This document shows positions 7,430 through 61,733 of a stretch of DNA of 64,000 nucleotides, one piece after another. A program made the translations under genes and the position numbers. The DNA comes from a virus: IMG/VR virus record IMGVR_UViG_3300025834_000005; one strand, 5' to 3'. The notes beneath the pieces were generated by a model. It saw only the letters and a list, made by a program, of their open reading frames with translations, had not been told where the DNA came from and made no database searches. Each line of letters opens with the position of its first letter. Positions within the stretch are counted from its first letter, which is position 1.

Positions 7430-7630
7430 TTATAATATAAAGCTAATAAATACGCCGATTGATATCCATAAAATCATTTTTTCAACACCAGTCATAACAA
7501 ACTTGGTATCGTTTCCGAAATATATTTTACTGTAAGCTTTAATTAAGATGTCGATAATAATATGTATAATATATATTATCGACATTATAAACATAAACTG
7601 GTAAATTTCTGCGAGAATTCCTATAATCAT
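7430..7630 (-). CDS. small hypothetical two-helix membrane protein
   Basis: 66 aa, two hydrophobic helices (IIGILAEIYQFMFIMSIIYIIHIIIDILI; MILWISIGVFISFIL). Confidence 0.45.
   Translation of the reverse strand: MIIGILAEIYQFMFIMSIIYIIHIIIDILIKAYSKIYFGNDTKFVMTGVEKMILWISIGVFISFIL
7446..7453 (-). promoter_or_regulatory. GTATTTAT upstream motif (candidate phage-specific promoter element)
   Basis: Plus strand reads ataaatac. Lies 18 nt upstream of the ATG at 7427 and overlaps the last codons of the preceding small ORF. Confidence 0.4.
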
Positions 7631-7642
7631 TTTTATTTGTTT

Positions 7643-7861
7643 TTATTTTTCTAAATCATTAGATACAACATCCTTAAAATAATGATCAACCATATCTATT
7701 TTTGAATTTATTAGTATAATTTCACCAAGAATTTCACTAATTTTATCGATTTTAGCACGATAGCCATGAGCCGATGAATTTATATAATCATGCAGTTCAA
7801 CCTCAGCCAGATATTTATCTGTTGATAGCTTACTCAATATATCATACTTAATATTAATCAT
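7643..7861 (-). CDS. hypothetical protein
   Basis: 72-aa ORF in the co-directional array. No motif recognised. Confidence 0.45.
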   Translation of the reverse strand: MINIKYDILSKLSTDKYLAEVELHDYINSSAHGYRAKIDKISEILGEIILINSKIDMVDHYFKDVVSNDLEK

Positions 7862-7906
7862 TTTTTTTGTAAAAGTATATAATATTTATCAATTATACAA
7901 GTACTT

Positions 7907-8338
7907 TCACACTTTTTCGAGTAATTTTTTTTTCAAAACCAATGACTTATCAAACTTAACATATACTTCGACAAGTAAATTCATATCATAACCCACTTTA
8001 TTAAACTTATAGTTGAAAATACTTCTCCAAAACTTATCAAGCTTATTAATATCTATTGAAGACTTATCTGTACAGGTATTAGAATTATAGATATGTAACT
8101 CATAAAACGAATAGAAATAAGTTCTAAGATCATCGTTATCGGCAAACATCATATTTTCCTTAGCGAATGACTTACACACCTCATTATAACACCAATTATA
8201 ATGATTGTATTTATCATTCTTATCATTTAACGTTTTAGAGTCTAAATAATAATCATAAATCTTATGCAATAAATTTATCGTAAAATCACGATAAAGTTCT
8301 ACTCTCATGATAACAATTTTTACTTTCTGTTCAGCCAT
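7907..8338 (-). CDS. hypothetical protein
   Basis: 143-aa ORF, first gene after a 172-nt intergenic region containing a terminator and a TAnnTTTG element. Confidence 0.55.
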   Translation of the reverse strand: MAEQKVKIVIMRVELYRDFTINLLHKIYDYYLDSKTLNDKNDKYNHYNWCYNEVCKSFAKENMMFADNDDLRTYFYSFYELHIYNSNTCTDKSSIDINKLDKFWRSIFNYKFNKVGYDMNLLVEVYVKFDKSLVLKKKLLEKV

Positions 8339-8372
8339 TATATATTTTTTTACTTTTGTCTTTTATTCGTGG

Positions 8373-8380
8373 CAAATATA
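8373..8380 (-). promoter_or_regulatory. candidate host-type -7 element TATATTTG (TAnnTTTG)
   Basis: Reverse complement of caaatata, with 34 nt between the motif and the ATG at 8338, downstream of the 8430-8473 terminator. Confidence 0.4.
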
Positions 8381-8429
8381 ATACAAAATATCCGAAATAC
8401 AACCATTACGAGTTAAAATATTTATAAAC

Positions 8430-8473
8430 AAAAAAAAGGATATTTAATTATAAATAGTTATAATTAAATATCC
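8430..8473 (-). terminator. rho-independent terminator
   Basis: 16-bp perfect stem ggatatttaattataa / ttataattaaatatcc (8438-8453 / 8458-8473) with a 4-nt loop. On the minus strand it is followed by 8 T (A-run 8430-8437). Lies 38 nt after the stop of the 8511-10328 gene. Confidence 0.75.
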
Positions 8474-8510
8474 CTGATAATTTGTTAGAATTATAGTCTG
8501 TATTCTGTTA

Positions 8511-10556: not shown

Positions 10557-10572
10557 AATTTGTACGTATTCA

Positions 10573-10613
10573 ATATATAAATACATTAACTTTGAATAAA
10601 CGTATTTATATAT
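10573..10613. repeat. 12-bp perfect inverted repeat atatataaatac / gtatttatatat with 17-nt spacer
   Basis: Arms at 10573-10584 and 10602-10613. One arm is the GTATTTAT upstream motif. Lies in the gap between genes ending at 10636 and starting at 10556. Confidence 0.7.
10577..10584 (-). promoter_or_regulatory. GTATTTAT upstream motif
   Basis: 20 nt upstream of the ATG at 10556. Confidence 0.45.
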
Positions 10614-11438: not shown

Positions 11439-11903
11439 TTATTGATTATTATTTGTGTCTCCTAAATTTTCAATCCAGTATTTATTAAACTTATCGTAAT
11501 TCGATTCAAGTCTACTGGTTATATCGGTATTAGCCTCATTGTCCTTGTTAAAGGCATCGGAATATTTAAATTCGACGCCAGTGGTATTTTCCACAGGCGG
11601 AACAGTGTACGTAAATTCGATCTCATTATTGATTACGCCACCCCAGAATACGAAATCGTCATAAACTTCAAGCTCATAATAATCAATTGAAACGTTAATA
11701 TCTTGGAATAATCCGTCGATAATATTCTGCTCTCTCTCCTGATCGCCCTGAGTAGCTTTATTCACTCTTTCAGCGTCAGCATTATCAATGGTGACATCCT
11801 CATTAAGTTTTCTGGTGATCTTTAACATGTCACGCATTGTCATGTCAATCTTTTCGCCTTTATTGAAGTGCTCCATTATCTTGGAAATTCTATTGATATT
11901 CAT
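11439..11903 (-). CDS. hypothetical acidic protein
   Basis: 154-aa ORF preceded by the GTATTTAT motif with 15-nt spacing. Confidence 0.5.
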   Translation of the reverse strand: MNINRISKIMEHFNKGEKIDMTMRDMLKITRKLNEDVTIDNADAERVNKATQGDQEREQNIIDGLFQDINVSIDYYELEVYDDFVFWGGVINNEIEFTYTVPPVENTTGVEFKYSDAFNKDNEANTDITSRLESNYDKFNKYWIENLGDTNNNQ

Positions 11904-11918
11904 AGTTAATAATTTATT

Positions 11919-11926
11919 ATAAATAC
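11919..11926 (-). promoter_or_regulatory. GTATTTAT upstream motif
   Basis: 15 nt upstream of the ATG at 11903, directly after the stop of the amidase-like gene. Confidence 0.45.
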
Positions 11927-16160: not shown

Positions 16161-16168
16161 CAAATGTA
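16161..16168 (-). promoter_or_regulatory. candidate host-type -7 element TACATTTG (TAnnTTTG)
   Basis: Reverse complement of caaatgta, with 18 nt between the motif and the ATG at 16142, in the 61-nt gap after the sigma-factor gene. Confidence 0.4.
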
Positions 16169-16203: not shown

Positions 16204-16755
16204 TTAATCGAGAATCAAATGCTTATTAGCCTTATGATTTTTCAACACGGTCTTAATATAGTTAATTTTATTAGCTATACACGTGCTTGTTGTGTTAAAT
16301 TCTTTGCCTATCTCATGGTAATTATATCCGTCAAGATATTTCATACTTAACATAGTGTAATCATCATTTGAGATTTGCTTCGAAATGAAATCTAAGCTAT
16401 TATTTGTCTCATATTCAATATAATCATTAGTACTTGTTGTTGTTCTTAAATTCCTACAAATTGCTCTTCGAACATTATTATCTCTAACGATATTTCTCAT
16501 ATGATTATTAGTTATAGTAAAAACCCATGTTCTAAAATCAGATTTCTTCTCGTCGTATTTAGCTAAATTTGAGAAAATTTTAATCATAATATCCGCAACA
16601 TAATCATCGATACAATCTTCCATTTGATTGTACTTATCATATTTAGCGTGAATAAACTGTTTTATCTGTTTTTTATATTTGAAGTAAATGAGTTGTTCGG
16701 AATTTTTATTCCCTTTTAAAATATTTTGTATATGGATCGTATCTTTCTGATTCAT
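16204..16755 (-). CDS. sigma-70 family (ECF-like) RNA polymerase sigma factor
   Basis: Region 2-like 'DDYVADIMIKIFSNLAKYDEKKSDFRTWVFTITNNHMRNIVRD' and region 4.2 HTH-like 'LSMKYLDGYNYHEIGKEFNTTSTCIANKINYIKTVLK'. 183 aa is typical of the two-domain ECF type. Confidence 0.7.
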   Translation of the reverse strand: MNQKDTIHIQNILKGNKNSEQLIYFKYKKQIKQFIHAKYDKYNQMEDCIDDYVADIMIKIFSNLAKYDEKKSDFRTWVFTITNNHMRNIVRDNNVRRAICRNLRTTTSTNDYIEYETNNSLDFISKQISNDDYTMLSMKYLDGYNYHEIGKEFNTTSTCIANKINYIKTVLKNHKANKHLILD

Positions 16756-17749
16756 GCATTTTTGTTATAAAATAATCATTTATTGTCAGCGACCTCAAAC
16801 TATACAAAGCTTCGGCAACCCTCTCGTCGCCCTGAAAACGTCTCATTTCATCTAAGTCGTCATTATTTGGCAATGCGATTAATTTTACTTTATCCTCACA
16901 ATCAATATATATTGTATGAAGTTTGTAAAATAATTCAACACTGTTTTTATAAGCATCAGGGTCTAATAATATTACAATATTGGGTTTCAGTTCTTTAATT
17001 TTCATAAATAATGCATCGGATATGGTTTTACCGAGCATTGGTGTTGTATTAATTGGGAGTGTAAGCATTTCAAAAGCACCTTCAACAACATATAATGTCA
17101 TATCCCAATTTATCATACCCTCATTGAATATGATTCTTGATTTGTCGGACTTGGGATTATCATACGGTTTGATCTTGAATTTGCCATTACCTTTATCGTA
17201 ATTTCTGGCTACAAAATAGTTGACGATACCATTTTTATCATAAGATGGAATTATGATTCGTTTTTTATATTTACCCTCAATACAAAATCCGATGCCAAAT
17301 TTAATTAAAAGACTTCTATCGATTTTACGCTCATTAATCATATAATTATACGCTTCAAAATGAGCAACATTCGAGGCATCCATTTTTGAAAATGGAATCA
17401 TTTCCTCTGGAAGTTCCACAGGAACATATTCAACTTCTTCTTCCTCATAATCATCATACCCAGCATATGAAGCATTATATATTTTATATAGGTCATAATC
17501 GATTTTAGAGCCATATAAATGAACAAGTTTTCCTAAGCTACCGCTGAACTTAGGGTCGTCACACTTCCAGCATCTAAACATTCGCCTTGCGGTGTTTATT
17601 TCGAGATTTGTTTTACCATCGGAAAATGCTAAGCCTTCATTCTCCTGACATCTTGGGCAATTGACCTGAACCTGTTCAGATACATTTAAGCCCTTGGCGT
17701 CTGGAAACATGCCTTGTATTATACTATGAAATTCTTGCCCTCTAATCAT
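16706..17749 (-). CDS. DNA primase (Zn-ribbon + TOPRIM)
   Basis: Zn ribbon 'CPRCQ..x21..RCWKCD'; TOPRIM 'YVVEGAFEMLTL' (Glu) and 'VILLDPDA' (DxD). The 3' end overlaps the sigma-factor ORF by 50 nt. Confidence 0.8.
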   Translation of the reverse strand: MIRGQEFHSIIQGMFPDAKGLNVSEQVQVNCPRCQENEGLAFSDGKTNLEINTARRMFRCWKCDDPKFSGSLGKLVHLYGSKIDYDLYKIYNASYAGYDDYEEEEVEYVPVELPEEMIPFSKMDASNVAHFEAYNYMINERKIDRSLLIKFGIGFCIEGKYKKRIIIPSYDKNGIVNYFVARNYDKGNGKFKIKPYDNPKSDKSRIIFNEGMINWDMTLYVVEGAFEMLTLPINTTPMLGKTISDALFMKIKELKPNIVILLDPDAYKNSVELFYKLHTIYIDCEDKVKLIALPNNDDLDEMRRFQGDERVAEALYSLRSLTINDYFITKMHESERYDPYTKYFKRE

Positions 17750-17764
17750 GCAACAAAAATAAGT

Positions 17765-17808: not shown

Positions 17809-18408
17809 CTAATATTGTTCGTCAGTAAAAGTCTTATAGTCTTTAAGGTATGGAAACATTTCGATCAACCTATTCATAAAGCCTCTGGGATTAATGATAA
17901 AATTCGTACCCCATTTATGATGCATATCCTGTAATTCGGTAAATAGATCAACAGTTTTCTGTTTCAAAATATCCTCATCACCCAACGAATCATAATTATT
18001 ATAAGTAACTCCGTCATCTGTTGGCTGAACATAAACGCCGTTAGTTGCCTTTGCTAATTGAATTCTAAGCTGTTCAGACTCTTCGGTAAGCCTTTCAACC
18101 TGTTCCTCAAGCCACAATCTATTATCATCATTCTTATTAATATATTTTGTAGCATCTGTTTGTATTGTGACAGGTTCAACCTTTTTTGTGCTCAGATCAA
18201 CATCCAAACATAAGCTATTAACCAATTCTTTAGCTTTTCTTGCACGTTCAGCCTCAGCATCAACTGGTTTTACAATTTCAGCTGGTTTAACTTCGGGGTT
18301 TTTAACTGCTTTTTGAACTGGTTTTGGTGTTGGCTTGCTCTCAGCTTTGGGTTTACTTGTTCCTTTTGCTAATTTAAGTAAGCCTTTATTAGAAGTAATA
18401 TCTTTCAT
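17809..18408 (-). CDS. hypothetical protein with Lys/Pro-rich N-terminus
   Basis: 199-aa ORF. N-terminal 'KPKAESKPTPKPVQKAVKNPEVKPAEIVKP' low-complexity segment and a central coiled-coil-like 'LWLEEQVERLTEESEQLRIQL'. Preceded by GTATTTAT with 18-nt spacing. Confidence 0.55.
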   Translation of the reverse strand: MKDITSNKGLLKLAKGTSKPKAESKPTPKPVQKAVKNPEVKPAEIVKPVDAEAERARKAKELVNSLCLDVDLSTKKVEPVTIQTDATKYINKNDDNRLWLEEQVERLTEESEQLRIQLAKATNGVYVQPTDDGVTYNNYDSLGDEDILKQKTVDLFTELQDMHHKWGTNFIINPRGFMNRLIEMFPYLKDYKTFTDEQY

Positions 18409-18426
18409 TTTTTATATAATTTTATA

Positions 18427-18434
18427 ATAAATAC
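18427..18434 (-). promoter_or_regulatory. GTATTTAT upstream motif
   Basis: 18 nt upstream of the ATG at 18408, downstream of the 18466-18503 terminator. Confidence 0.45.
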
Positions 18435-21049: not shown

Positions 21050-21250
21050 TTAGATTTTTTTAGATTTATCAAGTTCTTCAGTTAATTCATTACATTGCTT
21101 AGGATTATAAAGGTATAAAGCGATTAAATCACTCACTACCGATCCGATTTTCAAACCCCTACCCATACAATAAAGCTTCAATTTACCATGAAGTTTTCCA
21201 TCAATTATAATTGATTTTTGTTTATTTTTATCATCTTTTATAGTATTCAT
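21050..21250 (-). CDS. hypothetical protein
   Basis: 66-aa ORF preceded by GTATTTAT with 15-nt spacing. Confidence 0.45.
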   Translation of the reverse strand: MNTIKDDKNKQKSIIIDGKLHGKLKLYCMGRGLKIGSVVSDLIALYLYNPKQCNELTEELDKSKKI

Positions 21251-21265
21251 TATATATATTTAAAA

Positions 21266-21273
21266 ATAAATAC
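21266..21273 (-). promoter_or_regulatory. GTATTTAT upstream motif
   Basis: 15 nt upstream of the ATG at 21250, in a 56-nt gap. Confidence 0.45.
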
Positions 21274-22605: not shown

Positions 22606-25029
22606 TTATGCTGGTGGGCAACTAAATGGATCGCCAGAAACTCTTGTAACGCTTATGTTTGTACCCAACATTGGGTCGAAGAGATATCCGCTTGTTACAA
22701 CGTAAAATACGCCTGTCGCTCCCTCAACCCTCATACCATCGCTTAGATCATTCGTTGGTCGAGGCCCTGTGTAATAGGTAGTACCGTTTGGAATACATTT
22801 TGATAACGCATGCCAATATTGCCGAGGCGCAGCCGTAGTTGTGGGTGCTAATGTTGTTGTAGTTATCGGCGTTGTTGTACAATCAACATAAGCACCATCA
22901 ATACAATTTTTACCCCAGATATCACTACATATAATAGATGTTGCACCAAAATCAACTATGGCTGAGACTATTGTTACAATTGCTGAGCCTGATTTTGCAT
23001 TTAAACCGCCAACACAATCAATCTGAGCATCAACTTTAATCATGCTGATGTTCGTAATACCTGTGATAACAATACTTCCAGATGATGTTTGCACATCAGA
23101 CTGTTCAGTAGGAAAATTACCGCCGCTTACAGTTGCTGTAACAGTGTCTCGTTCAATCCAATTAACGCCATTATCGATGCTATATAACATTCTTGTGGTC
23201 GCCTGATTAGCGTCAGCACCGCTTGTGCCCACATTATCACACGATGCATCAATCACGTAATCCAACGTCACTGTAAATGTTTGACCAAGCGAATTTAACT
23301 CTTCGATAACACCGCCAGAATTAAAGAAATGTATTCGACTTACTGGTGCTACCGTTGTAGGTGCTAACGTGGTTGTAGGTGCTACAGTTGTGGTTGCAGG
23401 TGACAATGTTGTGGTTGCAGGTGGCAATGTTGTCGTTGTGGTTGTTGTGGTTGGCGGCAATGTTGTCGTTGTGGTAACTGGTTGAATTATTGTAACAGTG
23501 TTACCAGTTACTTTACAATCATGTACGCCAAGATCATATAAATATGACGAATATACACCACCTGTCAAATTTGTTAAAGTAATACCAGAAGCTAAAATAG
23601 GCTGGAAGTAAATTCTATTAGAACCCTCATAAACTTCAAGTAATAAGGTTGAATCCGATACATTCTGTATATTATATACACTTAACGTACCGTCACCGTA
23701 TATAGTTGGTGTATTGCCGCTAACCTCGAAAGATGCTTGACATGATGGACAGTTACTTATAACGCTGTTAAGTCCAACACGATAATCAGGTAGAGTCCAT
23801 GATCTATTTGCCTTGTAAGACATTGCAAATAATAATTCCTGATCTTCAATTACGAATAGTTTTAAATTATTCAATATTTTGCCAACGATATTATTATTAT
23901 CATCGGCTAAGTCATAATATGCTGTATTTAAGCCATCAAGTTTTTTTGACGCTCCAAATGCTTTTAAATTAACACCAAGGGTTGTACCACTGGCTTTATG
24001 CCACATTATTGTTGGAATATATAATTCAGGTGTGTTTCTGTAAAAACCCTCACCATATTGATTTGACGGCGAAGAATTTGTATAATGAATAACACCCATT
24101 TTTCTTATAATAGCACTCTGATTCTGAATATATGAGACAAAACCAGCATATTCAGAGGTTTTAAATTCTGGATATTTAGTAGTTCCAGTTATAGCACCAG
24201 CAATATTTTCAGTGTATAAGATAGACATTTTCCAATAAGGAAATGCAGGCATATCGCACTGAGCATTACTATAAAAAGACAAAACAGCATCTGATAGGTA
24301 ATCAACAGAGTCGTAAATCGTTGAGCCGCTATATGAATTATAGAATACTATTACACCTGCATAGCTGCCAACGCCATCATTAATATAACTCGGTAACGAT
24401 CTATCGACAGTAACCTCCAAATCATCACCACTCAATGTACCACTTATTACATCTTCAATTTTATAGAATAGATACGGCTTAGGATTTGTTATTTCGACAG
24501 TATTATTTAAAGTGTCACCATTATGGTTATTCATTTTTATCATAACCATATCACCAATGGATGGTTCAGGAGAACCCACTACATAGTTTACAGATTTATA
24601 TAGCTTTAATGTATTACTACCTATTAATTCGCTTAATAATACTTTAGCATTAGGCTGTTTAACATATTCAGTGCTCGTTTTAATGGTTACTGTCCCACCG
24701 CTATCAATATTAAAAAATCCCACTGAATCAATAGTATTCTCAACGATCATCGGATATGACGGTACACTTGTTATAGCATTGAATTCAGTGCTTCCACTTG
24801 TATTTGTGATAAATGATATTAAATCAGGATTCTTATCGGCTGGTCTTAAAATAGAAGGCGAATATGTCGGGTCAAATACCGTCGAAGCTTTAATTAGATT
24901 ATAATCAATCTCACTATCGCCAACAGCAAAATAATCAAAAGTTAACTTACCTTTTGATAGTAATTCTCTCCCTTTTGTTGTTAATTTTATACTTAATACT
25001 GTGGGATCATTTTTTTCAATAAATGCCAT
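22606..25029 (-). CDS. tail fibre / receptor-binding-type structural protein with Thr/Pro-rich linkers
   Basis: 807 aa, beta-rich and S/T/G/N-rich. Two linkers ('TTTTTLPPTTTTTTTTLPPATTTLSPATTTVAPTTTLAPTTVAP' and 'TTTPITTTTLAPTTTAAP') separate C-terminal modules. Located in the baseplate/fibre gene block. Confidence 0.55.
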   Translation of the reverse strand: MAFIEKNDPTVLSIKLTTKGRELLSKGKLTFDYFAVGDSEIDYNLIKASTVFDPTYSPSILRPADKNPDLISFITNTSGSTEFNAITSVPSYPMIVENTIDSVGFFNIDSGGTVTIKTSTEYVKQPNAKVLLSELIGSNTLKLYKSVNYVVGSPEPSIGDMVMIKMNNHNGDTLNNTVEITNPKPYLFYKIEDVISGTLSGDDLEVTVDRSLPSYINDGVGSYAGVIVFYNSYSGSTIYDSVDYLSDAVLSFYSNAQCDMPAFPYWKMSILYTENIAGAITGTTKYPEFKTSEYAGFVSYIQNQSAIIRKMGVIHYTNSSPSNQYGEGFYRNTPELYIPTIMWHKASGTTLGVNLKAFGASKKLDGLNTAYYDLADDNNNIVGKILNNLKLFVIEDQELLFAMSYKANRSWTLPDYRVGLNSVISNCPSCQASFEVSGNTPTIYGDGTLSVYNIQNVSDSTLLLEVYEGSNRIYFQPILASGITLTNLTGGVYSSYLYDLGVHDCKVTGNTVTIIQPVTTTTTLPPTTTTTTTTLPPATTTLSPATTTVAPTTTLAPTTVAPVSRIHFFNSGGVIEELNSLGQTFTVTLDYVIDASCDNVGTSGADANQATTRMLYSIDNGVNWIERDTVTATVSGGNFPTEQSDVQTSSGSIVITGITNISMIKVDAQIDCVGGLNAKSGSAIVTIVSAIVDFGATSIICSDIWGKNCIDGAYVDCTTTPITTTTLAPTTTAAPRQYWHALSKCIPNGTTYYTGPRPTNDLSDGMRVEGATGVFYVVTSGYLFDPMLGTNISVTRVSGDPFSCPPA
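22826..22877 (-). repeat. coding Thr/Pro/Ala linker (low-complexity codon repeat)
   Basis: Encodes TTTPITTTTLAPTTTAAP. Confidence 0.8.
23344..23478 (-). repeat. coding Thr/Pro linker with imperfect tandem DNA repeats
   Basis: Repeated gttgtggttgcaggtg / ggcaatgttgtcgttgtgg units encoding TTTLPP/ATTTxxP repeats. Confidence 0.8.
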
Positions 25030-25044
25030 ATATTCTATTTTTTA

Positions 25045-25052
25045 ATAAATAC
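25045..25052 (-). promoter_or_regulatory. GTATTTAT upstream motif
   Basis: 15 nt upstream of the ATG at 25029 (807-aa fibre-like gene). Confidence 0.45.
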
Positions 25053-30257: not shown

Positions 30258-30296
30258 AGTTTTGCTTTTTTAATAAATACATAAAAAAGCAAAACT
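30258..30296 (-). terminator. 14-bp stem hairpin (agttttgctttttt / aaaaaagcaaaact) enclosing the GTATTTAT motif in its loop
   Basis: Arms at 30258-30271 / 30283-30296 with an 11-nt loop containing the motif. Lies between the stop at 30311 and the GTG start at 30257. Candidate terminator/attenuator or palindromic operator. Confidence 0.5.
30273..30280 (-). promoter_or_regulatory. GTATTTAT upstream motif
   Basis: 15 nt upstream of the GTG at 30257. Confidence 0.45.
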
Positions 30297-34185: not shown

Positions 34186-34216
34186 AAAAAAAAATCCTAA
34201 TTCATTGAATTAGGAT
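34186..34216 (-). terminator. rho-independent terminator
   Basis: Stem atcctaattc / gaattaggat (34194-34203 / 34207-34216) with a 3-nt loop. The 9-A run 34186-34194 gives the U-tract on the minus strand. Lies 28 nt after the stop at 34244. Confidence 0.75.
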
Positions 34217-42100: not shown

Positions 42101-43361
42101 TGATTGTTAGGTCACGTCTACGTAAATCATCCTCAATTGGTAATGCATGATCTGATTTTGTCTCAATGCCCTTATGACCACCAGCACCTGTTGCTGTGTC
42201 GGTTCGTGGTATAGCAACATCAATATCCTCTGTACTACCAGTTGGTTTGAATTTCAGAACTCCAAATGATTTGCCCACAAGGTTTACTTGTCCATATTTA
42301 CCAAGTATCTGTTCAAGAGTGTCCATAGGAACGCCTGTGATCATAATATCAAGGTCTTTAGACTCTTTACCTAAATATTTATCACGCACAGCACCGCCAA
42401 CAGAGTATATCTTTCCGCCGAGCTTATTAATCTCAGCAGTGAAAGGTATTTGATCTAAACTATATATTTCGGCTTCATTCAAACTATTACCACTGGTTAT
42501 ATGCGCTTCCAATTCTTTTTTTAGCTCATCAAAATAAAAATCAATGCTTTCACCATCAAGGTCTGTGAAATTACCGTTAACGTCTCTGGCGATTCCGCCA
42601 TTATCATCCCTTTTAAAATATTTATGAATCCAGCCTTGCTGAGACATCATTCCTAAATGATTAACCTTCTGCTGTATTTCGTCAACATAATCGGATAATA
42701 CCATATTACCATTTCTATAGCCAAATTCACGAATAGCTTTAATATCTTTAGCCATTTCTATTTTAAAAGCAGGTAAATCCCTGTTTTTCACGGCAATCTC
42801 CAAAGGCTCTAACAATTTTAAAACCATTTCACTGAATTCGCTATCGCTTGGGTCTACAGATTCGTCAATCGGATTCTTTTTAAAACGAGACTTAATATAA
42901 TTGTTAATAGATTTATCGGTATAGCCAAGTAATTTACCCACTTCCACAGCCTCTTCTGGTGTTGTATCAGCAGCATAGCCATTATGAGCATTCATGTGAT
43001 CACGAAGCTTTAACGCATTTGCCTTATTAGTATAAATAATAAATGATTTTGTACCGTCCTTTCTAATGATAGGAATCGCATTAATGTTATGCATTGATAA
43101 ATTATTCCTAACATCAGCATCAAGATTATTCATAAGTAATAATCCCACGTCTCGTTTACCGTTTATTAATGTATTTACAGTTCCATCAGCACCGTAAGCC
43201 TCACTTGCATCAATTTCCTCATTAACAATTGAACTAATTTTCAGATTGTTCATATCACCCTGATTACATGCGGCAGATTTACCGTTAAGTTTCCCTAACT
43301 TGCATTTATCTTTAACCTCAACTGTTGAGCTATTTTTCATCCAAGATATAATTCTTTTCAT
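39138..43361 (-). CDS. 1407-aa multi-domain 'polyvalent' protein: unknown N-domain + class-II tRNA nucleotidyltransferase + ART-like module + 2 x unknown repeat domain + 2H phosphoesterase
   Basis: Single uninterrupted ORF. Domain motifs are listed in the sub-features below. Confidence 0.8.
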   Translation of the reverse strand: MKRIISWMKNSSTVEVKDKCKLGKLNGKSAACNQGDMNNLKISSIVNEEIDASEAYGADGTVNTLINGKRDVGLLLMNNLDADVRNNLSMHNINAIPIIRKDGTKSFIIYTNKANALKLRDHMNAHNGYAADTTPEEAVEVGKLLGYTDKSINNYIKSRFKKNPIDESVDPSDSEFSEMVLKLLEPLEIAVKNRDLPAFKIEMAKDIKAIREFGYRNGNMVLSDYVDEIQQKVNHLGMMSQQGWIHKYFKRDDNGGIARDVNGNFTDLDGESIDFYFDELKKELEAHITSGNSLNEAEIYSLDQIPFTAEINKLGGKIYSVGGAVRDKYLGKESKDLDIMITGVPMDTLEQILGKYGQVNLVGKSFGVLKFKPTGSTEDIDVAIPRTDTATGAGGHKGIETKSDHALPIEDDLRRRDLTINAIANDIEGNVIDPFGGVDDIRNKIIRMVDPSAFTEDPLRMLRAVQMASRFGFTIEPETMKAIQGSVSKIREIPSERILTEFDKIVQKGDHLIGANLLVETGIYKQLFGVNPMVDFNSKAELFRNAKTMGEFIYLLIGDTIDAPDEFYKTKLRGEINTYKEIKALKFAFDSEGNTVNIYKARSIAYNMYATYPESLKSNIIPKSIKMACDELLSGKYPKSNADLPVNGNDLMNLGFRGEQIKNKFKEILLKIYTDKLKNNREDILKYISSDNKPTPDGTDEPLNETIKGGEYVMYHGSKHKFDKFTDEFVGKENATDQEGPGIYFTESEEEAHMYGEYIYSVVLRPRKMTNAANKKVVSVSMMSSLIKMSPQWKEDAQNYDINPNRGLAKAISMMSEYADNEKDLYQQIWVDFFRHQPRLFIQGMSKLGFDGQLINKEYGGVRHIIAYNPAIITITNMVSKVPDATSENFNLQESLEQEGVGDKYAEKKFGIPDPDDEFEKDYKLHNLLMSEKPVAYVKNYDNVNNIRENVGIYKNPQSLSNFDQSTRAIADVYGNIYVAQKNGNFIHGEMAVALKFAVTDDSFYDNLDRFLLLNRVGNTNTFGLSDTTSSYVNADESDRRIVMLKIFKKLIQKNSQFRYYDRYFLDIKSDNKPINDTKITQEGVGDKYAANKFGIPDQDDEFEKEYKTHLQTQEEKPMAYVLDTKSDRIAIYKNPRSLANFDADVRAIGDPSGNIYVALQDKYFTHSRMAENIGLFTSGNEIYSTENLKKYTLMHRIGLTNGFGLGDAQYEIMNDEYENDGSLIANLRNFKKRNPQYNYYPDFYKFVKPNDKFVEESVNELSSVNPMSKKKLVKYSAVVLDDKSINKLRNAFADLIPDDYNQYRTNASGGTELICDHMTINFGEIDSFYEKYLGYTLRLKVESYAIDENVMAVGVSGFGSINDNRHITLAVNDNNGATAKMSNDLKKWIPYRKPLFLIGRVTEVPV
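39141..39548 (-). other. domain: 2H phosphoesterase-like (two HxT motifs), aa ~1272-1407
   Basis: 'LICDHMTINFG' and 'DNRHITLAVND' are spaced ~49 aa apart in a ~135-aa C-terminal domain, the H-x-T/S-x duplication that defines LigT/CPDase/Acb1-type 2H enzymes. Confidence 0.6.
39627..40118 (-). repeat. internal protein-domain duplication, copy B (aa ~1082-1245)
   Basis: 'EGVGDKYAANKFGIPDQDDEFEKEYKTH..EKPMAYV..IYKNPRSLANFDADVRAIGDPSGNIYVA..'. Period ~183 aa relative to copy A. Confidence 0.8.
40164..40670 (-). repeat. internal protein-domain duplication, copy A (aa ~898-1066)
   Basis: 'EGVGDKYAEKKFGIPDPDDEFEKDYKLH..EKPVAYV..IYKNPQSLSNFDQSTRAIADVYGNIYVA..'. Confidence 0.8.
40752..41234 (-). other. 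domain: ART-like (polyvalent-protein ADP-ribosyltransferase-type) module, aa ~710-870
   Basis: 'VMYHGSKHKFDKFTDEF..GPGIYFTESEEEAHMYGEYIYSV' and the distal 'GFDGQLI..GGVRHIIAYNP' fit my recollection of the H-G-S/T ... G-x-Y-F-T ... pattern of ART domains found in phage polyvalent proteins. Confidence 0.4.
41292..42462 (-). other. domain: complete class-II nucleotidyltransferase (CCA-adding enzyme / poly(A) polymerase family), aa ~300-690
   Basis: 'GGAVRDKYLGKESKDLDIMITG' (GGxVRD...DxD), 'RRDLTINAIA', 'EDPLRMLRAVQMASRFGF', and tail-domain-like 'LPVNGNDLMNLGFRGEQIKNKFKEILLKIYTDKLKNNREDILKYI'. Confidence 0.8.
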
Positions 43362-45169: not shown

Positions 45170-45871
45170 TTATTTATAATTTGTAAAACATATTGATATA
45201 TACTCAATTAAATTTGGAACAGTCTCCATTTTTTGTATCTCTTGCATTGTATACCATCCATATGCTGTATGTTCGCCATTTAATTTAACATCCGAATCAT
45301 CGCCATTAAAACGATCAGCGAATATATGCTCGACATTTAACACATCGTCATATGTTCTTTCAATTGTTAATCTTTTTATAATATTGTCAAGTTTAATTCC
45401 AGTTTCCTCATAAACCTCACGTTTACATGCATCCTCTGGTGATTCATCATCCTCTATTTTACCGCCAGCCAAACCATATTTACCAGCAGCCCAACAGTTC
45501 TCGCCTCTTTTTAAAAGCAGAAATTTATTATCCTTATTGGCGATAACACCGAGTGCATTCTCCTGTTTGTTTAAGTTTTCAGATTCATTTAAAGCACCTA
45601 TATTAATCTTTCTTGCTGAATTTAGACTATTATCAACATATTTTTGCATGTCAACGCCACCAGCTAATAAATATTGAACATCATTAGCACCCATTCCAGC
45701 CATATCATGTTTGAGCCTTTTTAATGCTTGGTATGTTAATGTCCTATTTTTTAGAATATACTTAGCCCTACGAATCCCATCGCTGTCAGGATATCTTGTA
45801 ATCGCAGCACTGATGATATTTAAAACATCTTTAGGTACTACGAAATTTTTGCCGTATAGTTCACTATTCAT
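45170..45871 (-). CDS. Nudix hydrolase with ~100-aa N-terminal extension
   Basis: Nudix box 'GGKIEDDESPEDACKREVYEETGI' (Gx5Ex7REUxEExGU). Confidence 0.8.
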   Translation of the reverse strand: MNSELYGKNFVVPKDVLNIISAAITRYPDSDGIRRAKYILKNRTLTYQALKRLKHDMAGMGANDVQYLLAGGVDMQKYVDNSLNSARKINIGALNESENLNKQENALGVIANKDNKFLLLKRGENCWAAGKYGLAGGKIEDDESPEDACKREVYEETGIKLDNIIKRLTIERTYDDVLNVEHIFADRFNGDDSDVKLNGEHTAYGWYTMQEIQKMETVPNLIEYISICFTNYK

Positions 45872-46464
45872 TTAGCCTCTATTAAGTTTTTTAGTTTATC
45901 TTTTGATTTGTTATCTAATCTATTAATCAGTCCAGCTAATTTTGAAACGCTTTTGTCTGACATATCATGATCATTAGTCTTTGCTGATAGAAAATTTTCA
46001 GGTTTTTTTTCGATAATAATATCCTCGTCAACAACTGATTCGTCAACACTCTTTGGCTTACTTTCGAATTTTTTTACAATCTCTTTAGCATACACCTCAA
46101 AATATTTTACAACATCCTTGGAGATCGTTTCCTTTTCAGTATAAATTCTATAGTCATTTTTCAGATTATTTGGATTTTTATAGTAGTATTTCATGATTTC
46201 TTCATAGAATTTACGAAGAATATCTAAAGTATCTGTCAAGTCTTTATTCTTCTCGTCAGAACCCTCGCCCTCAAAGAATGGTAGCATGACAGAACCAAAA
46301 TATCCCATCATGCTATCACCAAACGGCTGATGTCCCACAGCCATATTATAATCTGTAATTTTTTTCGATACAGTGCTCATATTAGAACCTGTTTTTGGCG
46401 TGTTATCGTTGCCTATCAGACTCCCATCGCTATCTATAACCTCATTTATAAGACTAACTTTCAT
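45868..46464 (-). CDS. hypothetical protein
   Basis: 198-aa ORF with a 4-nt overlap with the Nudix gene, preceded by GTATTTAT with 19-nt spacing. Confidence 0.5.
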   Translation of the reverse strand: MKVSLINEVIDSDGSLIGNDNTPKTGSNMSTVSKKITDYNMAVGHQPFGDSMMGYFGSVMLPFFEGEGSDEKNKDLTDTLDILRKFYEEIMKYYYKNPNNLKNDYRIYTEKETISKDVVKYFEVYAKEIVKKFESKPKSVDESVVDEDIIIEKKPENFLSAKTNDHDMSDKSVSKLAGLINRLDNKSKDKLKNLIEAK

Positions 46465-46483
46465 GATTATTAAGTAATTTAAT

Positions 46484-46491
46484 ATAAATAC
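46484..46491 (-). promoter_or_regulatory. GTATTTAT upstream motif
   Basis: 19 nt upstream of the ATG at 46464, in the 49-nt gap after the polymerase gene. Confidence 0.45.
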
Positions 46492-52118: not shown

Positions 52119-52508
52119 TTAAATCACAGTTGTCTTTGTGATGGAATCAAAAACAGTAATTTTAATAACACCGCTATTCGGAATAGATATTTTCATAGGA
52201 AAATCCACGTTTAAAAAATCTAATTTAAACTCTCCGATAAAATTTCCTGTTTTAGCTGTATCATCCAAAGTAAAATTATACTCAATCGAATACTTTGGAA
52301 CAGCCAGATAATCATTATCATTTCGAAATTTAATACAGCCACTAACATTTGCTATTGCAAATTCATCAGTATCCTCATCATACATTGAGAATGTGACAGC
52401 TGCATTATTTATGTCATCATCAGAAATGCCATATTTATCTAAAAATTCCTGATCTACGGCGTACTTTAAGGTCGGAAGAGTACTATCCTTTTTTATAAAA
52501 AAATTCAT
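52119..52508 (-). CDS. hypothetical protein (start revised to MNFFIKKD..)
   Basis: The ATG at 52508 lies 17 nt downstream of GTATTTAT. The listed start at 52535 would include the motif in the ORF. Confidence 0.5.
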   Translation of the reverse strand: MNFFIKKDSTLPTLKYAVDQEFLDKYGISDDDINNAAVTFSMYDEDTDEFAIANVSGCIKFRNDNDYLAVPKYSIEYNFTLDDTAKTGNFIGEFKLDFLNVDFPMKISIPNSGVIKITVFDSITKTTVI

Positions 52509-52525
52509 AATATAAGTTCTTTTAT

Positions 52526-52533
52526 ATAAATAC
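52526..52533 (-). promoter_or_regulatory. GTATTTAT upstream motif
   Basis: 17 nt upstream of the ATG at 52508. Confidence 0.45.
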
Positions 52534-59988: not shown

Positions 59989-60012
59989 TCTTTTTATATT
60001 AATTTAAAATGC

Positions 60013-60438
60013 TTATTTTAAAGGGAAATTGCTGCCGAGTTTATTAGACTTAAATCCTAACAATACATCAGTTAACTGATCATCGTCAGATTTTTCAACC
60101 TCTTCAGGCTTATTAGTGTCAACCATTGCTTGACACTGAGCCATTTCTTCGGGATTCTCATCCGTACCATAGTATTTAGGGTCTTCTGTTAAATGATCAA
60201 ACACAATATCCAATGCAACCATAGGGTCTGAGGCATGTTCTCTTTCAACTGAAAGACCTTTTTTTATCTGATCTCTACTGAATTTAGATATATCAGCATT
60301 ATCGCCTTTTCCGCCATGAATCTCATCGCCAATAGCCTCTTTATCATCAATGATAGAATCAACTGTTTCTTCCTTGAGTGGCATACCAGCGACTTTATTC
60401 ATCATTTCCATTAAGGTATATCTTTTTATATTACTCAT
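60013..60438 (-). CDS. conserved hypothetical protein (DUF5661-like pattern)
   Basis: 'GGKGDNADISKFSRDQIKKGLSVEREHASDPMVALDIVFDHLTEDPKYY' fits the GG.ad....f....l..G..vE.EH......a..Ia.DHL.E.p.YY pattern, recalled from memory. Confidence 0.4.
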   Translation of the reverse strand: MSNIKRYTLMEMMNKVAGMPLKEETVDSIIDDKEAIGDEIHGGKGDNADISKFSRDQIKKGLSVEREHASDPMVALDIVFDHLTEDPKYYGTDENPEEMAQCQAMVDTNKPEEVEKSDDDQLTDVLLGFKSNKLGSNFPLK

Positions 60439-60850
60439 AAATTTCGTCGTTTATCTTACCAAATTCTCTTAATAATACGCCAGCTGTGGCATTTGCATCG
60501 TTTTCCTCATCACTACCTGTTTCGCCAGACTGTGCATTAATCTTACCTTGAAGATTTTGCTCGTGATGCGTTAATTCATGTCCTAACGTTCTTAAAATAT
60601 CAGCCAAGTTCCTATTTGCGCCAACAATACTGATAGTCATATCATAAGGAGAGTATCCACCAAACGAATGCATTTTTTTAGCTTCACCATCAGCATAAGT
60701 AATTTCGATTTTAGGTATGTTACCGCCTAAACCCAATCTCTTATCGGCAAAGGTAATAAATTCTTTGATTATTACATCCCTTTTATCCTGATCGCTATCT
60801 AATTTAATATTATTAACTTTTTCGAATATTTCAAATAGTTTATTCTTCAT
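60431..60850 (-). CDS. putative zincin-like metallopeptidase (HExxH)
   Basis: 'TLGHELTHHEQN' HExxH motif in a 139-aa protein. 8-nt overlap with the downstream gene. Confidence 0.45.
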   Translation of the reverse strand: MKNKLFEIFEKVNNIKLDSDQDKRDVIIKEFITFADKRLGLGGNIPKIEITYADGEAKKMHSFGGYSPYDMTISIVGANRNLADILRTLGHELTHHEQNLQGKINAQSGETGSDEENDANATAGVLLREFGKINDEIYE

Positions 60851-60853
60851 TTT

Positions 60854-61522
60854 TTACGTTAATCTATTGAAACTGTCTTTTATGTCATCGCTTTCAGGGA
60901 GATCATCAAAATTAGCTGCAAATGTACCATCCTCAAGCTCTTTAATACCTTTATCCTGATTATTTCTATCGAACCACGAATCAGACCAAAAGTCATTTAA
61001 ATTGAAGTAATAAGGGTATGAAACTTTAGATTTACTCATAAGTTTCTCAGAATTTGTAGGTTCTCTAACTTCCTCAACATCTGTATTTAAAACATCGAGT
61101 TTACCATTGATTTGATTAACAAAATTACTAAGGCTCTCCATTTGGTCATGGATTGATTTCATAGCAATTATATTACTTTTTATAATCTCATTCTGTAAAG
61201 AATTAACATCAGCCACAGGCTCTTGCGATACTGGCGGCATTGCCATTGGCTCAGGTGTTACCTGATCTTCTGGAGCTACTTGCTCAGGTTGTTCAGCTGG
61301 AGCACCTTCTGCTGGTGGTAGTTCTTCGGCTGGTGGCATATCAGGTTTTAAACCTTTTTGTGCTTCTTCACCTTCTTCATTAGATTCCTCATATAATTCA
61401 TCTGGTAAATTGTCAAACTCGTCATCATTACCCATTACCGATTTATATCTCGGAGATTCGCTTACGACATAAGTCATCTTATGGATCATTTTATCCAAAT
61501 TAGTAATAAGTTGTTTTTTCAT
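60854..61522 (-). CDS. hypothetical protein with Pro/Glu/Ala-rich central segment
   Basis: 222 aa. 'PDMPPAEELPPAEGAPAEQPEQVAPEDQVTPEPMAMPPVSQEP' low-complexity linker. Confidence 0.5.
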   Translation of the reverse strand: MKKQLITNLDKMIHKMTYVVSESPRYKSVMGNDDEFDNLPDELYEESNEEGEEAQKGLKPDMPPAEELPPAEGAPAEQPEQVAPEDQVTPEPMAMPPVSQEPVADVNSLQNEIIKSNIIAMKSIHDQMESLSNFVNQINGKLDVLNTDVEEVREPTNSEKLMSKSKVSYPYYFNLNDFWSDSWFDRNNQDKGIKELEDGTFAANFDDLPESDDIKDSFNRLT

Positions 61523-61532
61523 ATCTCGACTA

Positions 61533-61709
61533 TTAGTATTGTTCTCTCAATAATTGACGTCCATCTTCAACAAGGTACACTTTATCAACTCTTTCGATAA
61601 TTGAAAAGTTATTCTGAAGTATTACTTCTTTTTTGTTTTTCTTTTGAAGTTCTGTCATGCTTTCGTCTTCCATGAAGTTATCTAAAGCATTTCCTAAATC
61701 TTTATTCAT
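61533..61709 (-). CDS. small hypothetical protein (start revised to MNKDLGN..)
   Basis: The ATG at 61709 lies 16 nt downstream of GTATTTAT. The listed start at 61754 overlaps the upstream gene and includes the motif. Confidence 0.4.
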   Translation of the reverse strand: MNKDLGNALDNFMEDESMTELQKKNKKEVILQNNFSIIERVDKVYLVEDGRQLLREQY

Positions 61710-61725
61710 AGCAATATATTTTAAT

Positions 61726-61733
61726 ATAAATAC
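61726..61733 (-). promoter_or_regulatory. GTATTTAT upstream motif
   Basis: 16 nt upstream of the ATG at 61709. Confidence 0.45.

Follow-up and report, generated by a model that had tools for sequence, protein, structure and literature searches.

Organization of the locus

The window analysed here is a 64,000-nt stretch of a 328 kb metagenomic contig from an uncultured jumbo phage, whose gene content resembles that of the "group 2" jumbo phages and which carries such T4-like functions as gp25, a gp6-like wedge protein, a UvsX-like recombinase and a family-B polymerase. Scattered along the window is a short element, in full a-GTATTTAT-W-N-N-A-A-A, with the 14-base core form GTATTTAT-NNN-AAA (the 14-mer). 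The sites discussed below and two neighbouring terminators are as follows.

6162-6175, plus strand: full 14-mer GTATTTATATGAAA; its last A (motif +13) opens the ATG of the plus-strand ORF 6175-6639
7440-7453, minus strand: octamer lacking the AAA tail, GTATTTATTAGCTT, within the 3' end of ORF 7430-7630
10571-10584, minus strand: octamer with a non-canonical tail, GTATTTATATATTG, before a 70-aa gene (start 10556)
11913-11926, minus strand: 14-mer GTATTTATAATAAA, before a 154-aa gene (11439-11903), abutting the stop codon of the upstream amidase gene; kept in relative L005
18421-18434, minus strand: 14-mer GTATTTATTATAAA, before a 199-aa gene (17809-18408); kept in L005 and L006
18466-18503, minus strand: Rho-independent terminator, upstream of the 18421-18434 site
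21260-21273, minus strand: 14-mer GTATTTATTTTTAA, before a 66-aa gene (21050-21250), with a RuvC-like resolvase gene next
25039-25052, minus strand: 14-mer GTATTTATTAAAAA, before an 807-aa gene (22606-25029)
30267-30280, minus strand: 14-mer GTATTTATTAAAAA, before a 1332-aa gene (GTG start 30257); kept in L003 and L004
31224-31237, minus strand: 14-mer GTATTTATTAACAA, before a 300-aa gene (30311-31213); kept in L003 and L004
34168-34181, minus strand: 14-mer GTATTTATATAAAA, 14 nt before the gp25-like baseplate gene 33767-34159 (Pfam GPW_gp25); kept in L002 and L003
34186-34220, minus strand: Rho-independent terminator (hairpin and T-run), ending 4 nt before the promoter-like site of the gp25 gene
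46478-46491, minus strand: 14-mer GTATTTATATTAAA, before a 198-aa gene (45868-46464), with the DNA polymerase gene just upstream
52520-52533, minus strand: 14-mer GTATTTATATAAAA, before a 129-aa gene (52119-52508), between DnaB-like and helicase genes
61720-61733, minus strand: 14-mer GTATTTATATTAAA, before a 58-aa gene (61533-61709)
63902-63915, minus strand: variant GTATTTCTTAAAGA, 13 nt before a glycosyltransferase gene (62392-63894)

The twelve minus-strand octamers that a preliminary description of this DNA had assigned to start codons were all found where it had placed them and with the spacings it gave, as were both terminators it named and a one-mismatch copy, GTATTTCT, 13 nt before 63894 (at 63908-63915, within the variant above, which is a possible weak site). 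One of the twelve, the copy at 7446, lies within the end of an ORF and lacks the AAA extension, and is probably a chance copy. The further copies that had been collected by eye proved to be an incomplete set: same-strand intragenic copies at 54465 and 57811 had been missed, as had plus-strand copies at 6162, 10602, 11478, 26428 and 63031, and an opposite-orientation copy given as 40646-40653 exists, at 40647-40654. The gp25-like gene is served as had been described, while the "fibre" label attached to the 807-aa and 1332-aa genes goes no further than their position and a sub-threshold SprB repeat.

Some of the sites have a more complex setting. The 10571-10584 site forms the right half of a palindrome (10573-10613), the other half being the plus-strand copy at 10602-10609, and the palindrome is kept in L005. 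The 30267-30280 site occupies the loop and 3' arm of a conserved hairpin (30259-30295). The ORF behind the plus-strand site at 6162-6175 is membrane-protein-like and was also predicted by the contig's gene caller; its arrangement makes it a candidate for a leaderless transcript.

Frequency and placement of the motif

An exhaustive count on both strands of the window gave 22 exact copies of GTATTTAT, 15 on the minus strand and 7 on the plus strand, as against a mean of 9.5 and at most 19 in 100 dinucleotide shuffles. Their placement is far from even: the 30 nt upstream of minus-strand starts make up 3.0% of the region, yet they wholly contain 12 of the 15 minus-strand copies. Of all 8-mers in the 40 nt before genes, GTATTTAT is the most frequent (12 of 59 genes, vs. 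about 0.35 expected from intergenic composition); the placement upstream of starts that had been noticed by eye holds on a complete count. The 14-mer occurs 9 times in the window, where 0.40 would be expected and shuffles give at most 2. Exact copies predominate, with only 5 of 92 one-mismatch octamers lying near starts.

The conserved AAA lies 3-5 nt past the octamer in a fixed register, at motif positions +11 to +13; the looser downstream (A/T)(A/T)AAA noted earlier was right as to the AAA and is more exactly W-N-N-A-A-A. Among 39 non-redundant sites, A is found at +11, +12 and +13 in 33, 38 and 38 cases, respectively. No -35-like block was found with 11 sites and later with 39, as the preliminary description had also reported, and across positions -50 to -15 of the 39 sites the information content is everywhere below about 0.2 bit. 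The motif is a single short, highly conserved element that lies upstream of phage genes of a defined class, in the same orientation as these, and has no conserved -35 element with it.

Conservation in relatives

At 8 orthologous sites the octamer is identical at 80 of 80 positions, while the flanks are 79-80% identical close by and 51-59% farther out. The site at 25039-25052 is kept before the ortholog (MAFIEK/MAFIDK...) in L003, L005, L022, L024 and L033, and that at 21260-21273 in L005, L006, L014, L022, L024, L027, L030 and L033. In 160 kb of relatives that share the sigma factor described below, the 14-mer occurs 36 times on the coding strand vs. 4 times antisense; in 122 kb of controls, which are few and more distant, the corresponding figures are 0 and 1, and the motif is absent from Flavobacterium phage immuto as well as from the other controls. 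The relatives' ECF-type sigma factors are 38-70% identical to the one encoded here, and the motif persists where the sigma is only 38-45% identical, a co-occurrence that is partly built in, all of the relatives having been retrieved via the sigma gene. The motif-bearing phages range from 23 to 36% in GC content and probably infect different hosts.

These counts bear directly on two further ideas: that A/T-rich DNA yields the motif by chance, and that it is a T4-type late promoter (TATAAATA) seen from the other strand. The intergenic DNA is indeed 82% A+T, and GTATTTATA reads TATAAATAC on the complementary strand, with the T4 late box inside it. The excess of both octamer and 14-mer over expectation, the perfect conservation of orthologous sites, and a 36:4 strand bias that follows gene orientation, with no plus-strand genes between 7000 and 64000 for a reversed promoter to serve, effectively refute both ideas.

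Terminators, spacing and the presumed transcription start

Several sites directly follow strong terminators. The site at 34174 begins 4 nt past a T-run, a layout also seen in L022, L025 and L030, and the hairpin at 34186-34220 is retained in L003 with a different stem sequence. At one orthologous gene, that following the 21260-21273 site, anything from 15 to 33 nt separates motif and ATG; the AAA keeps its register with the octamer and not with the ATG. The spacing distribution is bimodal, with a main cluster at 13-20 nt and no cases at 0-2 or 6-9 nt. In four cases the first ATG of the ORF has its A at motif +11, +12, +13 and +13, exactly on the conserved AAA; this argument for leaderless messages covers four cases and was noticed post hoc. 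In phage -10-only promoters of the T4 late and phiEco32 middle/late type the start lies about 5-8 nt past the element, and the AAA and these four ATGs give such a start indirect support here.

An element so close to start codons (13-20 nt) and so strand-specific might instead act on RNA, as an endonuclease processing site, or as an operator for a translational repressor or activator near selected starts of polycistronic transcripts. Many of the sites do lie in very short intergenic gaps without a terminator, and that at 30273 sits in the loop of its conserved RNA hairpin. We consider such a role improbable. Several sites lie 4-25 nt past efficient-looking terminators, leaving no space for another promoter, so that little RNA would carry them; the AAA remains locked to the octamer at orthologous genes whose ATG moves; the bimodal spacing and the ATGs lying on +11 to +13 fit a 5' end made by initiation; and nuclease sites are rarely invariant over 11 positions. 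The placement after terminators and the variable ATG spacing, together with the finding that no copy is suitably placed on the coding strand of the small plus-strand genes that make up a block of about 15 kb, argue for action at the level of DNA.

Host-type promoters in the same genome

A second class of upstream signal is represented by the following boxes.

16161-16168, minus strand: host-type TAnnTTTG box TACATTTG, before an SbcCD-like gene
8373, 17754, 20088, 34710, 34742, 52055 and 55002 (starts): further TAnnTTTG boxes

The two signals are mutually exclusive for any one gene, save for a pseudo-copy at 17766. TAnnTTTG precedes replication and repair genes (as the preliminary description had noted for replication) and the sigma gene, while GTATTTAT precedes baseplate genes and ORFans. 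The early TAnnTTTG promoters and the missing Shine-Dalgarno sequences point to a host among the Bacteroidota.

It might be asked whether a host factor, either an alternative sigma or the host primary sigma acting on a variant -7 box, reads the motif instead of a phage factor. TATTTAT is partly like the TAnnTTTG frame (TA-nn-T-T), and flavobacterial hosts do have ECF sigmas with CGT-type -10 boxes (PMC9723704). The motif does not conform to a Bacteroidota sigmaA promoter, having A-T-W where T-T-G is required and needing a leading G; this invariant G and the A that replaces the TTTG core set it apart from all described sigmaA variants (PMC9723704). It is absent from immuto and the other controls, has neither a -33 TTTG nor another block upstream of it at any site, and is kept across phages of such different GC content. 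A host reader is thus very unlikely.

The phage-encoded sigma factor

A more attractive candidate is encoded within the window itself.

16204-16755, minus strand: ECF-type sigma factor gene, 183 aa (Pfam Sigma70_r2 and Sigma70_ECF, phrog_1740, PDB sigmaE)
16706-17749: primase-like gene, preceded by the host-type box TATTTTTG at 17754-17761

The sigma gene overlaps and follows the primase-like gene, and its position behind a host-type TAnnTTTG promoter suggests that the protein would be made before its presumed targets. No anti-sigma gene is evident next to it. The sigma2 domain is well supported (Pfam Sigma70_r2, E = 1e-8, above threshold), and in the AlphaFold model the N-terminal domain (pLDDT 75-91) superposes on region 2 of sigmaE with a TM score of 0.77-0.82; the structural matches to sigmaE region 2 include an entry titled engineered region 2 bound to GTAAAA. 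The Pfam ECF model spans residues 8-174 at 23.6 bits (cut-off 21.1), and the protein, at 183 aa, is too short to hold regions 1.1 or 3 as well. The segment LSMKYLDGYNYHEIG aligns weakly to sigmaE region 4, and the protein appears to keep a sigma4-like C-terminal domain, modelled with low confidence (pLDDT 32-58). As far as the examined part of the genome goes, T4 gp55-type late transcription, with its sigma2-only factor, does not describe this system, the sigma being closest to ECF sigmaE and the coding strand reading GTATTTAT rather than TATAAATA.

ECF sigmas normally require a -35 element. The bipartite promoter that would be cognate for such a sigma (-35 AAC-type and -10 CGT/GTC-type) was not found here; there is a -10-like element initiated by G-T-A, and no -35. 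This discrepancy lends some weight to the suggestion that the motif is a genuine promoter with another reader, either a phage RNA polymerase or a second, gp55-like sigma in the remaining 244 kb of the genome. The signal recalls phage-polymerase promoters in being strict (8+3 nt), in having a fixed, conserved initiation triplet and in lacking a -35, and 84 kb of the 328 kb was examined. No polymerase-like protein is found among those of the window and its 10 kb flanks. The host-type promoters and "group 2" gene content fit a class that uses phage sigmas with the host polymerase and has been described as lacking a polymerase of its own (PMC7824862). The motif also tracks the sigma clade down to 38% identity, and its G-T-A start fits the -10 logic of ECF sigmas and of gp36 (PMC12276001). 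On balance we regard another reader as unlikely, though less so than action on RNA or a host factor.

A probable phage-specific promoter class

About twelve genes have the motif upstream, and it is unaltered in distant relatives that have the unusual sigma in common, which makes it very probable that these phages have a middle/late promoter of their own. We put at roughly 70% the probability that a-GTATTTAT-W-N-N-A-A-A is a DNA-level, phage-specific, -10-only promoter used by the host RNA polymerase with the ECF-like sigma encoded at 16204-16755. Strand and position bias, conservation of orthologous sites amid drifting flanks, persistence in relatives and absence from controls, placement after terminators, exclusivity with TAnnTTTG and the host-type promoter of the sigma gene all support reading it as a promoter. 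The phage-specific promoter with short leaders proposed earlier is thus the best-fitting account across every computational test run, with promoter function, the start position and recognition by this sigma all inferred from sequence. The tentative term "late" fits in part: it suits the baseplate block, but small ORFs inside the replication module are also served, as is the SbcCD-like nuclease gene in relatives.

The infection might then proceed as follows. Host RNA polymerase with the host primary sigma would read the TAnnTTTG promoters, driving replication and repair genes and the primase-sigma operon. The ECF-type sigma would accumulate, bind the host core polymerase and direct it to GTATTTAT sites, where G-T-A would lie at about -13/-12 to -10, as in the -10 elements of ECF sigmas and phiEco32 gp36. 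The all-A/T stretch would melt, and transcription would begin on the near-invariant AAA at motif +11 to +13. The resulting mRNAs, leaderless or with A-rich leaders of 8-15 nt and no Shine-Dalgarno sequence, would suit a Bacteroidota host.

Some points speak against recognition by this sigma: a near-invariant triplet at +1 would be expected of a phage-polymerase promoter more than of a sigma-dependent one; the sigma appears to retain a sigma4-like domain, yet no -35 is detectable; and the other 244 kb or so of the genome could encode another sigma (e.g. gp55-like) or an RNA polymerase. A stronger version, in which an ECF-type sigma with a sigma4-like domain works without any -35, reads a 14-nt signal spanning -10, discriminator and +1, fixes initiation on the AAA and yields a class of leaderless or 8-15-nt-leader mRNAs, is offered tentatively and seems to us rather doubtful. 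If true, it would be a recognition mode not described for ECF sigmas, conserved in a deep, uncultured clade of Bacteroidota jumbo phages, and its lack of a -35 and leaderless messages would extend the known capabilities of such sigmas.

For an uncultured jumbo-phage clade lacking any isolate, in which hardly a gene can be annotated, the motif provides a regulatory map. With 14 nt one can sort host-polymerase (TAnnTTTG) units from phage-sigma units, pick out ORFans that are probable middle/late genes (for the virion or for lysis), correct start codons and recognize the clade in metagenomic data. Together with the sigma, the motif is also a candidate for an orthogonal promoter/sigma pair in Bacteroidota, a phylum short of genetic tools.

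Comparison with known systems

T4 late promoters carry the box TATAAATA, which gp55 recognizes together with gp33 and the gp45 clamp. The element described here shares with them an 8-bp, nearly invariant, A/T-only -10 element without a -35, located before virion genes such as those of the baseplate. It differs in that its coding strand reads the reverse complement of the T4 box and that its candidate sigma is of the two-domain ECF type, with no more than a weak structural likeness to gp55 (7d7c, E = 0.49).

Canonical bacterial ECF sigma promoters pair a -35 AAC with a -10 CGT or GTC. The likeness lies in the ECF-type sigma2 fold, in a -10 element starting G-T-(A/C), and in a model that superposes on sigmaE region 2 in its -10 DNA complexes; in contrast, the 39 sites here have no -35, and the conserved element is much longer. 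The primary-sigma promoters of Bacteroidota (-33 TTTG / -7 TAnnTTTG) likewise have an 8-nt box near the start site and mRNAs without Shine-Dalgarno sequences (PMC9723704), and they share this genome, serving other phage genes; sequence and served gene sets both differ.

A close parallel is phiEco32, whose middle/late promoters depend on gp36: this sigma reads tAATGTAtA as a lone element, transcription starts 6-8 bp further downstream, and the G at -11 is the first base to unwind (PMC8948821, PMC12276001). There, as would be the case here with the candidate reader, a phage-encoded ECF-related sigma redirects the host core polymerase to one conserved -10-region element that contains G-T-A and has no alignable -35, and the sigma gene itself is not late. 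Unlike phiEco32, a 77-kb podovirus, ours is a jumbo, myovirus-like phage of another host phylum, with the consensus GTATTTAT-NNN-AAA, a conserved AAA at the presumed start, leaders predicted to be extremely short or absent, a sigma with no detectable sequence relationship to gp36, and no identified gp79-like co-activator. Redirection of host polymerase to a -10-only promoter by a phage sigma is a well-known strategy, as in T4 gp55 and phiEco32 gp36; what is new here is the promoter sequence and the phage group, a finding that is solid rather than surprising.

Genome context and host

The window corresponds approximately to positions 66,304-130,303 of the metagenomic contig ena:ERZ27245488:k141_1156773, which at 328,453 bp therefore belongs to a jumbo phage, and has a GC content of 32%. 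A megablast search with 20 kb gave no match to cultured phages, none of which is closely related; at the protein level the best hits, about 27% identical, are to Flavobacterium phage immuto, a 484-kb uncultured phage, and Salinibacter and Nostoc phages, in whose genomes the motif described below is absent. The recognisable genes are:

Baseplate: gp25-like and gp6-like genes
Replication: family-B DNA polymerase, DnaB-like and other helicases, primase
Recombination and repair: UvsX-like recombinase, SbcCD-like nuclease, RuvC-like resolvase
Other: amidase; a sigma factor of 183 aa (16204-16755)

This gene content agrees with that of the 'group 2' jumbo phages, which lack an RNA polymerase of their own and encode sigma factors (PMC7824862). 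For most of the genes served by the motif, PHROGs and Pfam give no function. The minus-strand gene at 39138-43361 encodes an unusually large fusion of 1407 aa, in which residues 317-528 form a CCA-adding-like tRNA nucleotidyltransferase domain and further domains of unknown function include phrog_25279 at 714-880.

Shine-Dalgarno-like sequences precede only 3 of 68 genes and the leaders are 54% A, the same pattern as in Bacteroidota (PMC6847099, PMC9723704), from which we infer that the host belongs to that phylum. The box TAnnTTTG, known as the -7 box of the Bacteroidota primary sigma (PMC9723704), is enriched between genes in the sense direction: intergenic DNA makes up 3.6% of the sequence but holds 11 of 44 sense copies, compared with 4 of 38 antisense copies. 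The preliminary description had assigned this box to replication genes, and it is indeed found before the primase-sigma operon and the helicase-polymerase unit, as well as before the SbcCD-like gene and an exonuclease gene. It never shares a gene with the octamer GTATTTAT, save for a pseudo-copy at 17766; this sequence, GTATTTTT, was considered as a variant octamer site and rejected, because a terminator's 3' arm and T-run account for it. A scan with the sigma-70 consensus was uninformative (98 sites vs. 100 in shuffles).

An octamer enriched upstream of start codons

The octamer GTATTTAT had been reported before 12 start codons as a candidate phage-specific, perhaps late, promoter, and all 12 positions and spacings proved right. 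An exhaustive count gives 22 copies (15 minus-strand, 7 plus-strand), compared with a mean of 9.5 and a maximum of 19 in 100 dinucleotide-preserving shuffles; two sense intragenic copies (54465 and 57811) and five antisense copies had been overlooked, and one placed at 40646 lies at 40647. With a curated list of 59 minus-strand genes (5377 to 64000), 12 of the 15 minus-strand copies fall wholly within 30 nt upstream of a start, a zone that covers 3.0% of the region. Within the 40 nt that precede each start, no other 8-mer comes near the octamer in frequency (12 of 59 genes have it); about 0.35 copies would be expected from intergenic composition (82% A+T). Exact copies prevail, with just 5 of 92 one-mismatch copies lying within 40 nt upstream of a start; these five include the terminator arm at 17766 and GTATTTCT at 63908, the latter already noticed before the start at 63894. 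The copy at 7446, one of the original 12, lies inside the end of ORF 7430-7630 and has no AAA tail downstream; it was rejected as a promoter site and is probably a chance copy.

The consensus, derived from 11 window sites and then from 39 non-redundant sites of the window and its relatives, is a-GTATTTAT-W-N-N-A-A-A. Counting from G as 0, A is found at +11, +12 and +13 in 33, 38 and 38 of the 39 sites, respectively. No -35-like element was found, as had been suspected by eye: positions -50 to -15 carry no information at any point across the 39 sites. Between the octamer's last base and the ATG lie 13-20 nt, most often 16. The 14-mer GTATTTATNNNAAA, which joins the octamer to NNN-AAA, occurs 9 times in the window, compared with 0.40 expected and at most 2 in any shuffle; eight copies are minus-strand upstream sites. 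The individual sites with notable surroundings are:

6162-6175, plus strand: ninth 14-mer, ending on the ATG (at motif +13) of ORF 6175-6639, which encodes 154 aa with a membrane-protein-like translation and is also called by the contig's gene caller
10577, minus strand, and 10602, plus strand: octamer copies forming the two halves of a palindrome, conserved in relatives
18427, minus strand: octamer directly downstream of a strong hairpin-plus-T-run terminator
30259-30295, minus strand: hairpin of about 15 bp, with arms GTTTTGCTTTTTT...AAAAAAGCAAAAC and octamer 30273 in its loop, stopping 2 nt before the GTG start of a 1332-aa gene; conserved in L003, a relative
34174, minus strand: octamer 4 nt beyond the end of the T-run of a strong terminator

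ORF 6175-6639 is a lone plus-strand gene amid minus-strand genes, and its 14-mer stands back to back with the host-type box TATCTTTG of the divergent gene 5377-6126. The palindrome, at 10573-10613, is an inverted pair ATATATAAATAC-N-GTATTTATATAT with 12 bp, kept in the related locus L005; a tighter, imperfect one, GTATTTACATATAAATAC, occurs in L009, a flank of the same contig, at 6865-6882, before a lone minus-strand gene in a block of small plus-strand genes. These palindromes could be terminators, operators or bidirectional signals. The hairpin at 30259-30295 would form in RNA read through from upstream and not in RNA begun at the motif, so that it might tell two transcript types apart, or act on translation.

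A probable promoter acting at the level of DNA

The motif is best read as a promoter acting at the DNA level, judging by sequence statistics and conservation. An RNA processing site or a translational operator seems quite unlikely, given that the spacing to the start is variable and bimodal and that sites adjoin terminators; the preliminary description had pointed to terminators right before some sites, and those upstream of 34174 and 18427 bear this out. A promoter fits because sites so close to terminators would hardly exist in RNA, and because the AAA is locked to the octamer rather than to the ATG. Furthermore, a block of small plus-strand genes, about 15 kb long, has no correctly placed octamer on its coding strand, and the motif is therefore not a general translation signal. 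The block's left extension has a single exact copy, placed 13 nt ahead of the only minus-strand gene there, L009:6679-6861.

With the G of GTATTTAT at -11 to -13, transcription would start on the conserved AAA. Transcripts beginning at motif +11 to +13 would either be leaderless or carry a leader of at least about 8 nt, and a bimodal spacing is thus expected. Four first-in-ORF ATGs have their A on the motif, at +11, +12, +13 and +13, and the spacing distribution has none at 0-2 or 6-9, one at 10 and its main cluster at 13-20. This bimodality lends independent, if post hoc, support to the predicted start, and the mRNA of ORF 6175-6639 is a candidate leaderless transcript.

Conservation in relatives

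At all 8 orthologous sites in five related loci (L002-L006, protein identity about 69-70%) the octamer is identical (80 of 80 positions); the adjacent 20 nt before and 6 nt after it are 79-80% identical, and positions farther away 51-59%. The terminator before gp25 is retained in relatives with a changed stem sequence. The sigma family is rare, with 5 clusters among 5.8 billion proteins; a metagenome scan with the sigma alignment gave 29 loci, and IMG/VR holds only one relative bearing the sigma. The loci were collected by way of the sigma gene, so that the co-occurrence of motif and sigma in the counts below is partly built in.

Copies of the 14-mer by strand. Controls are loci with 23-26% identical sigma-like proteins, phage immuto and the 484-kb phage.
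Loci with sigma 38-70% identical, 160 kb: 36 coding strand, 4 antisense
Controls, 122 kb: 0 coding strand, 1 antisense

An origin by chance, or as a T4 late box of the other strand, is scarcely credible, being refuted by the counts and by the 36:4 orientation bias; the T4-type box was rejected on orientation. Curiously, GTATTTATA and TATAAATAC are reverse complements of each other. The octamer is the leading upstream k-mer in several loci with a 38-70% identical sigma, whose GC contents range over 23-36%, and the site is kept across the depth of the sigma clade at orthologs of the 807-aa, 66-aa and 154-aa genes. Before the 66-aa ortholog the octamer-NNN-AAA unit is constant, while the ATG lies at spacings between 15 and 33 nt. 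In some lineages the SbcCD-like gene carries the octamer motif in place of TAnnTTTG.

Distant relatives share a conserved copy, ...GGCAAT GTATTTAT ATAAAACCTTG..., with no ORF beginning within 45 nt of it and a TAnnTTTG-like box downstream (L022:6821, L024:6842, L025:835, L027:3597, L030:1786 and L033:6101); the window has no copy at this position. This copy may encode a conserved C-terminal peptide (...NVFI*), or it may belong with the box to a tandem of phage-type and host-type promoters ahead of the exonuclease gene. The immuto locus (vB_FspM_immuto_2-6A, MW353175.1 62372-104156), from a cultured but distantly related phage, is without GTATTTAT. About 14-20 of its 60 genes, most of them small, are preceded by a highly repeated block with the approximate sequence TATATTTAGGTATCAATAATTAAAA, which is probably that phage's own promoter class.

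The phage sigma as candidate reader

The phage sigma is the candidate for the reader. Its sequence matches Pfam Sigma70_r2 and an ECF model, both above threshold; its alignment with E. coli sigmaE is weak and takes in a region-4-like segment, LDGYNYHEIG. The N-terminal domain, confidently modelled, superposes on sigmaE region 2 with TM 0.77-0.82; confidence is low in the C-terminal half, because the model had 5 input sequences. Among the structure matches are entries of sigmaE region 2 bound to non-template DNA of the -10 element, and the title of one such entry describes an engineered region 2 bound to GTAAAA; T4 gp55 is a marginal match (E = 0.49). A precedent is on record in the phiEco32 sigma gp36, which reads a single element, tAATGTAtA; transcription starts 6-8 bp downstream of it, and the first base to unwind is its G at -11 (PMC8948821, PMC12276001).

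Another reader, either a phage RNA polymerase or a further sigma from the remaining 244 kb, would sit well with the conserved +1 triplet and the missing -35 element, but no RNA polymerase was found in the 84 kb of 328 kb examined and the motif tracks the sigma clade, making such a reader unlikely. Reading by a host sigma is very improbable, since the motif is missing from the control phages and is unlike the described sigmaA variants. With the phage sigma as reader, host sigmaA promoters would drive the replication genes and the sigma gene, and the phage sigma with host core polymerase would then read GTATTTAT-NNN-AAA, whose sites would drive baseplate and fibre-region genes and many ORFans. 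The proposed label 'late' has partial support: the motif serves the block of gp25/gp6 baseplate genes and the large genes downstream, but also small ORFs of the replication module and, in relatives, a nuclease gene; 'middle/late, phage-sigma-dependent' is safer.

Observations in the flanks of the window

About 5-8 kb to the left of the window start, L009:2316-3749 encodes a TROVE (Ro60-like) protein. Some 400 nt downstream of it, inside a geneless gap of 718 nt, a stretch of 124 nt (L009:4158-4281) matches the Rfam tRNA model at 42.6 bits, and ARAGORN calls no tRNA there; it could be a Y-RNA-like (YrlA-type) partner of the phage Ro60 homolog. Just to the right of the window, in the flank L008, the proteins encoded by 534-3005 (823 aa) and 3271-4932 (553 aa) have short C-terminal or internal domains common to many otherwise unrelated IMG/VR phages, about 45-65% identical over about 100 aa, which suggests exchangeable receptor-binding or fibre modules. 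Two anchor proteins used to search IMG/VR for sequence past the right edge matched unrelated phages only, through C-terminal domains held in common.

Comparison with known systems

No description of the motif was found in the literature searched, where the octamer string occurs only in unrelated primer sequences; what is new in this case is the consensus, along with the phage clade and the presumed host phylum. The system differs from the canonical bipartite ECF promoter in having no -35 element, and from the T4 gp55 system in both the type of sigma and the orientation of the box. Like the T4 late and phiEco32 middle/late promoters, it would be a -10-only element, with an A/T-rich box that hardly varies, read by a phage sigma.
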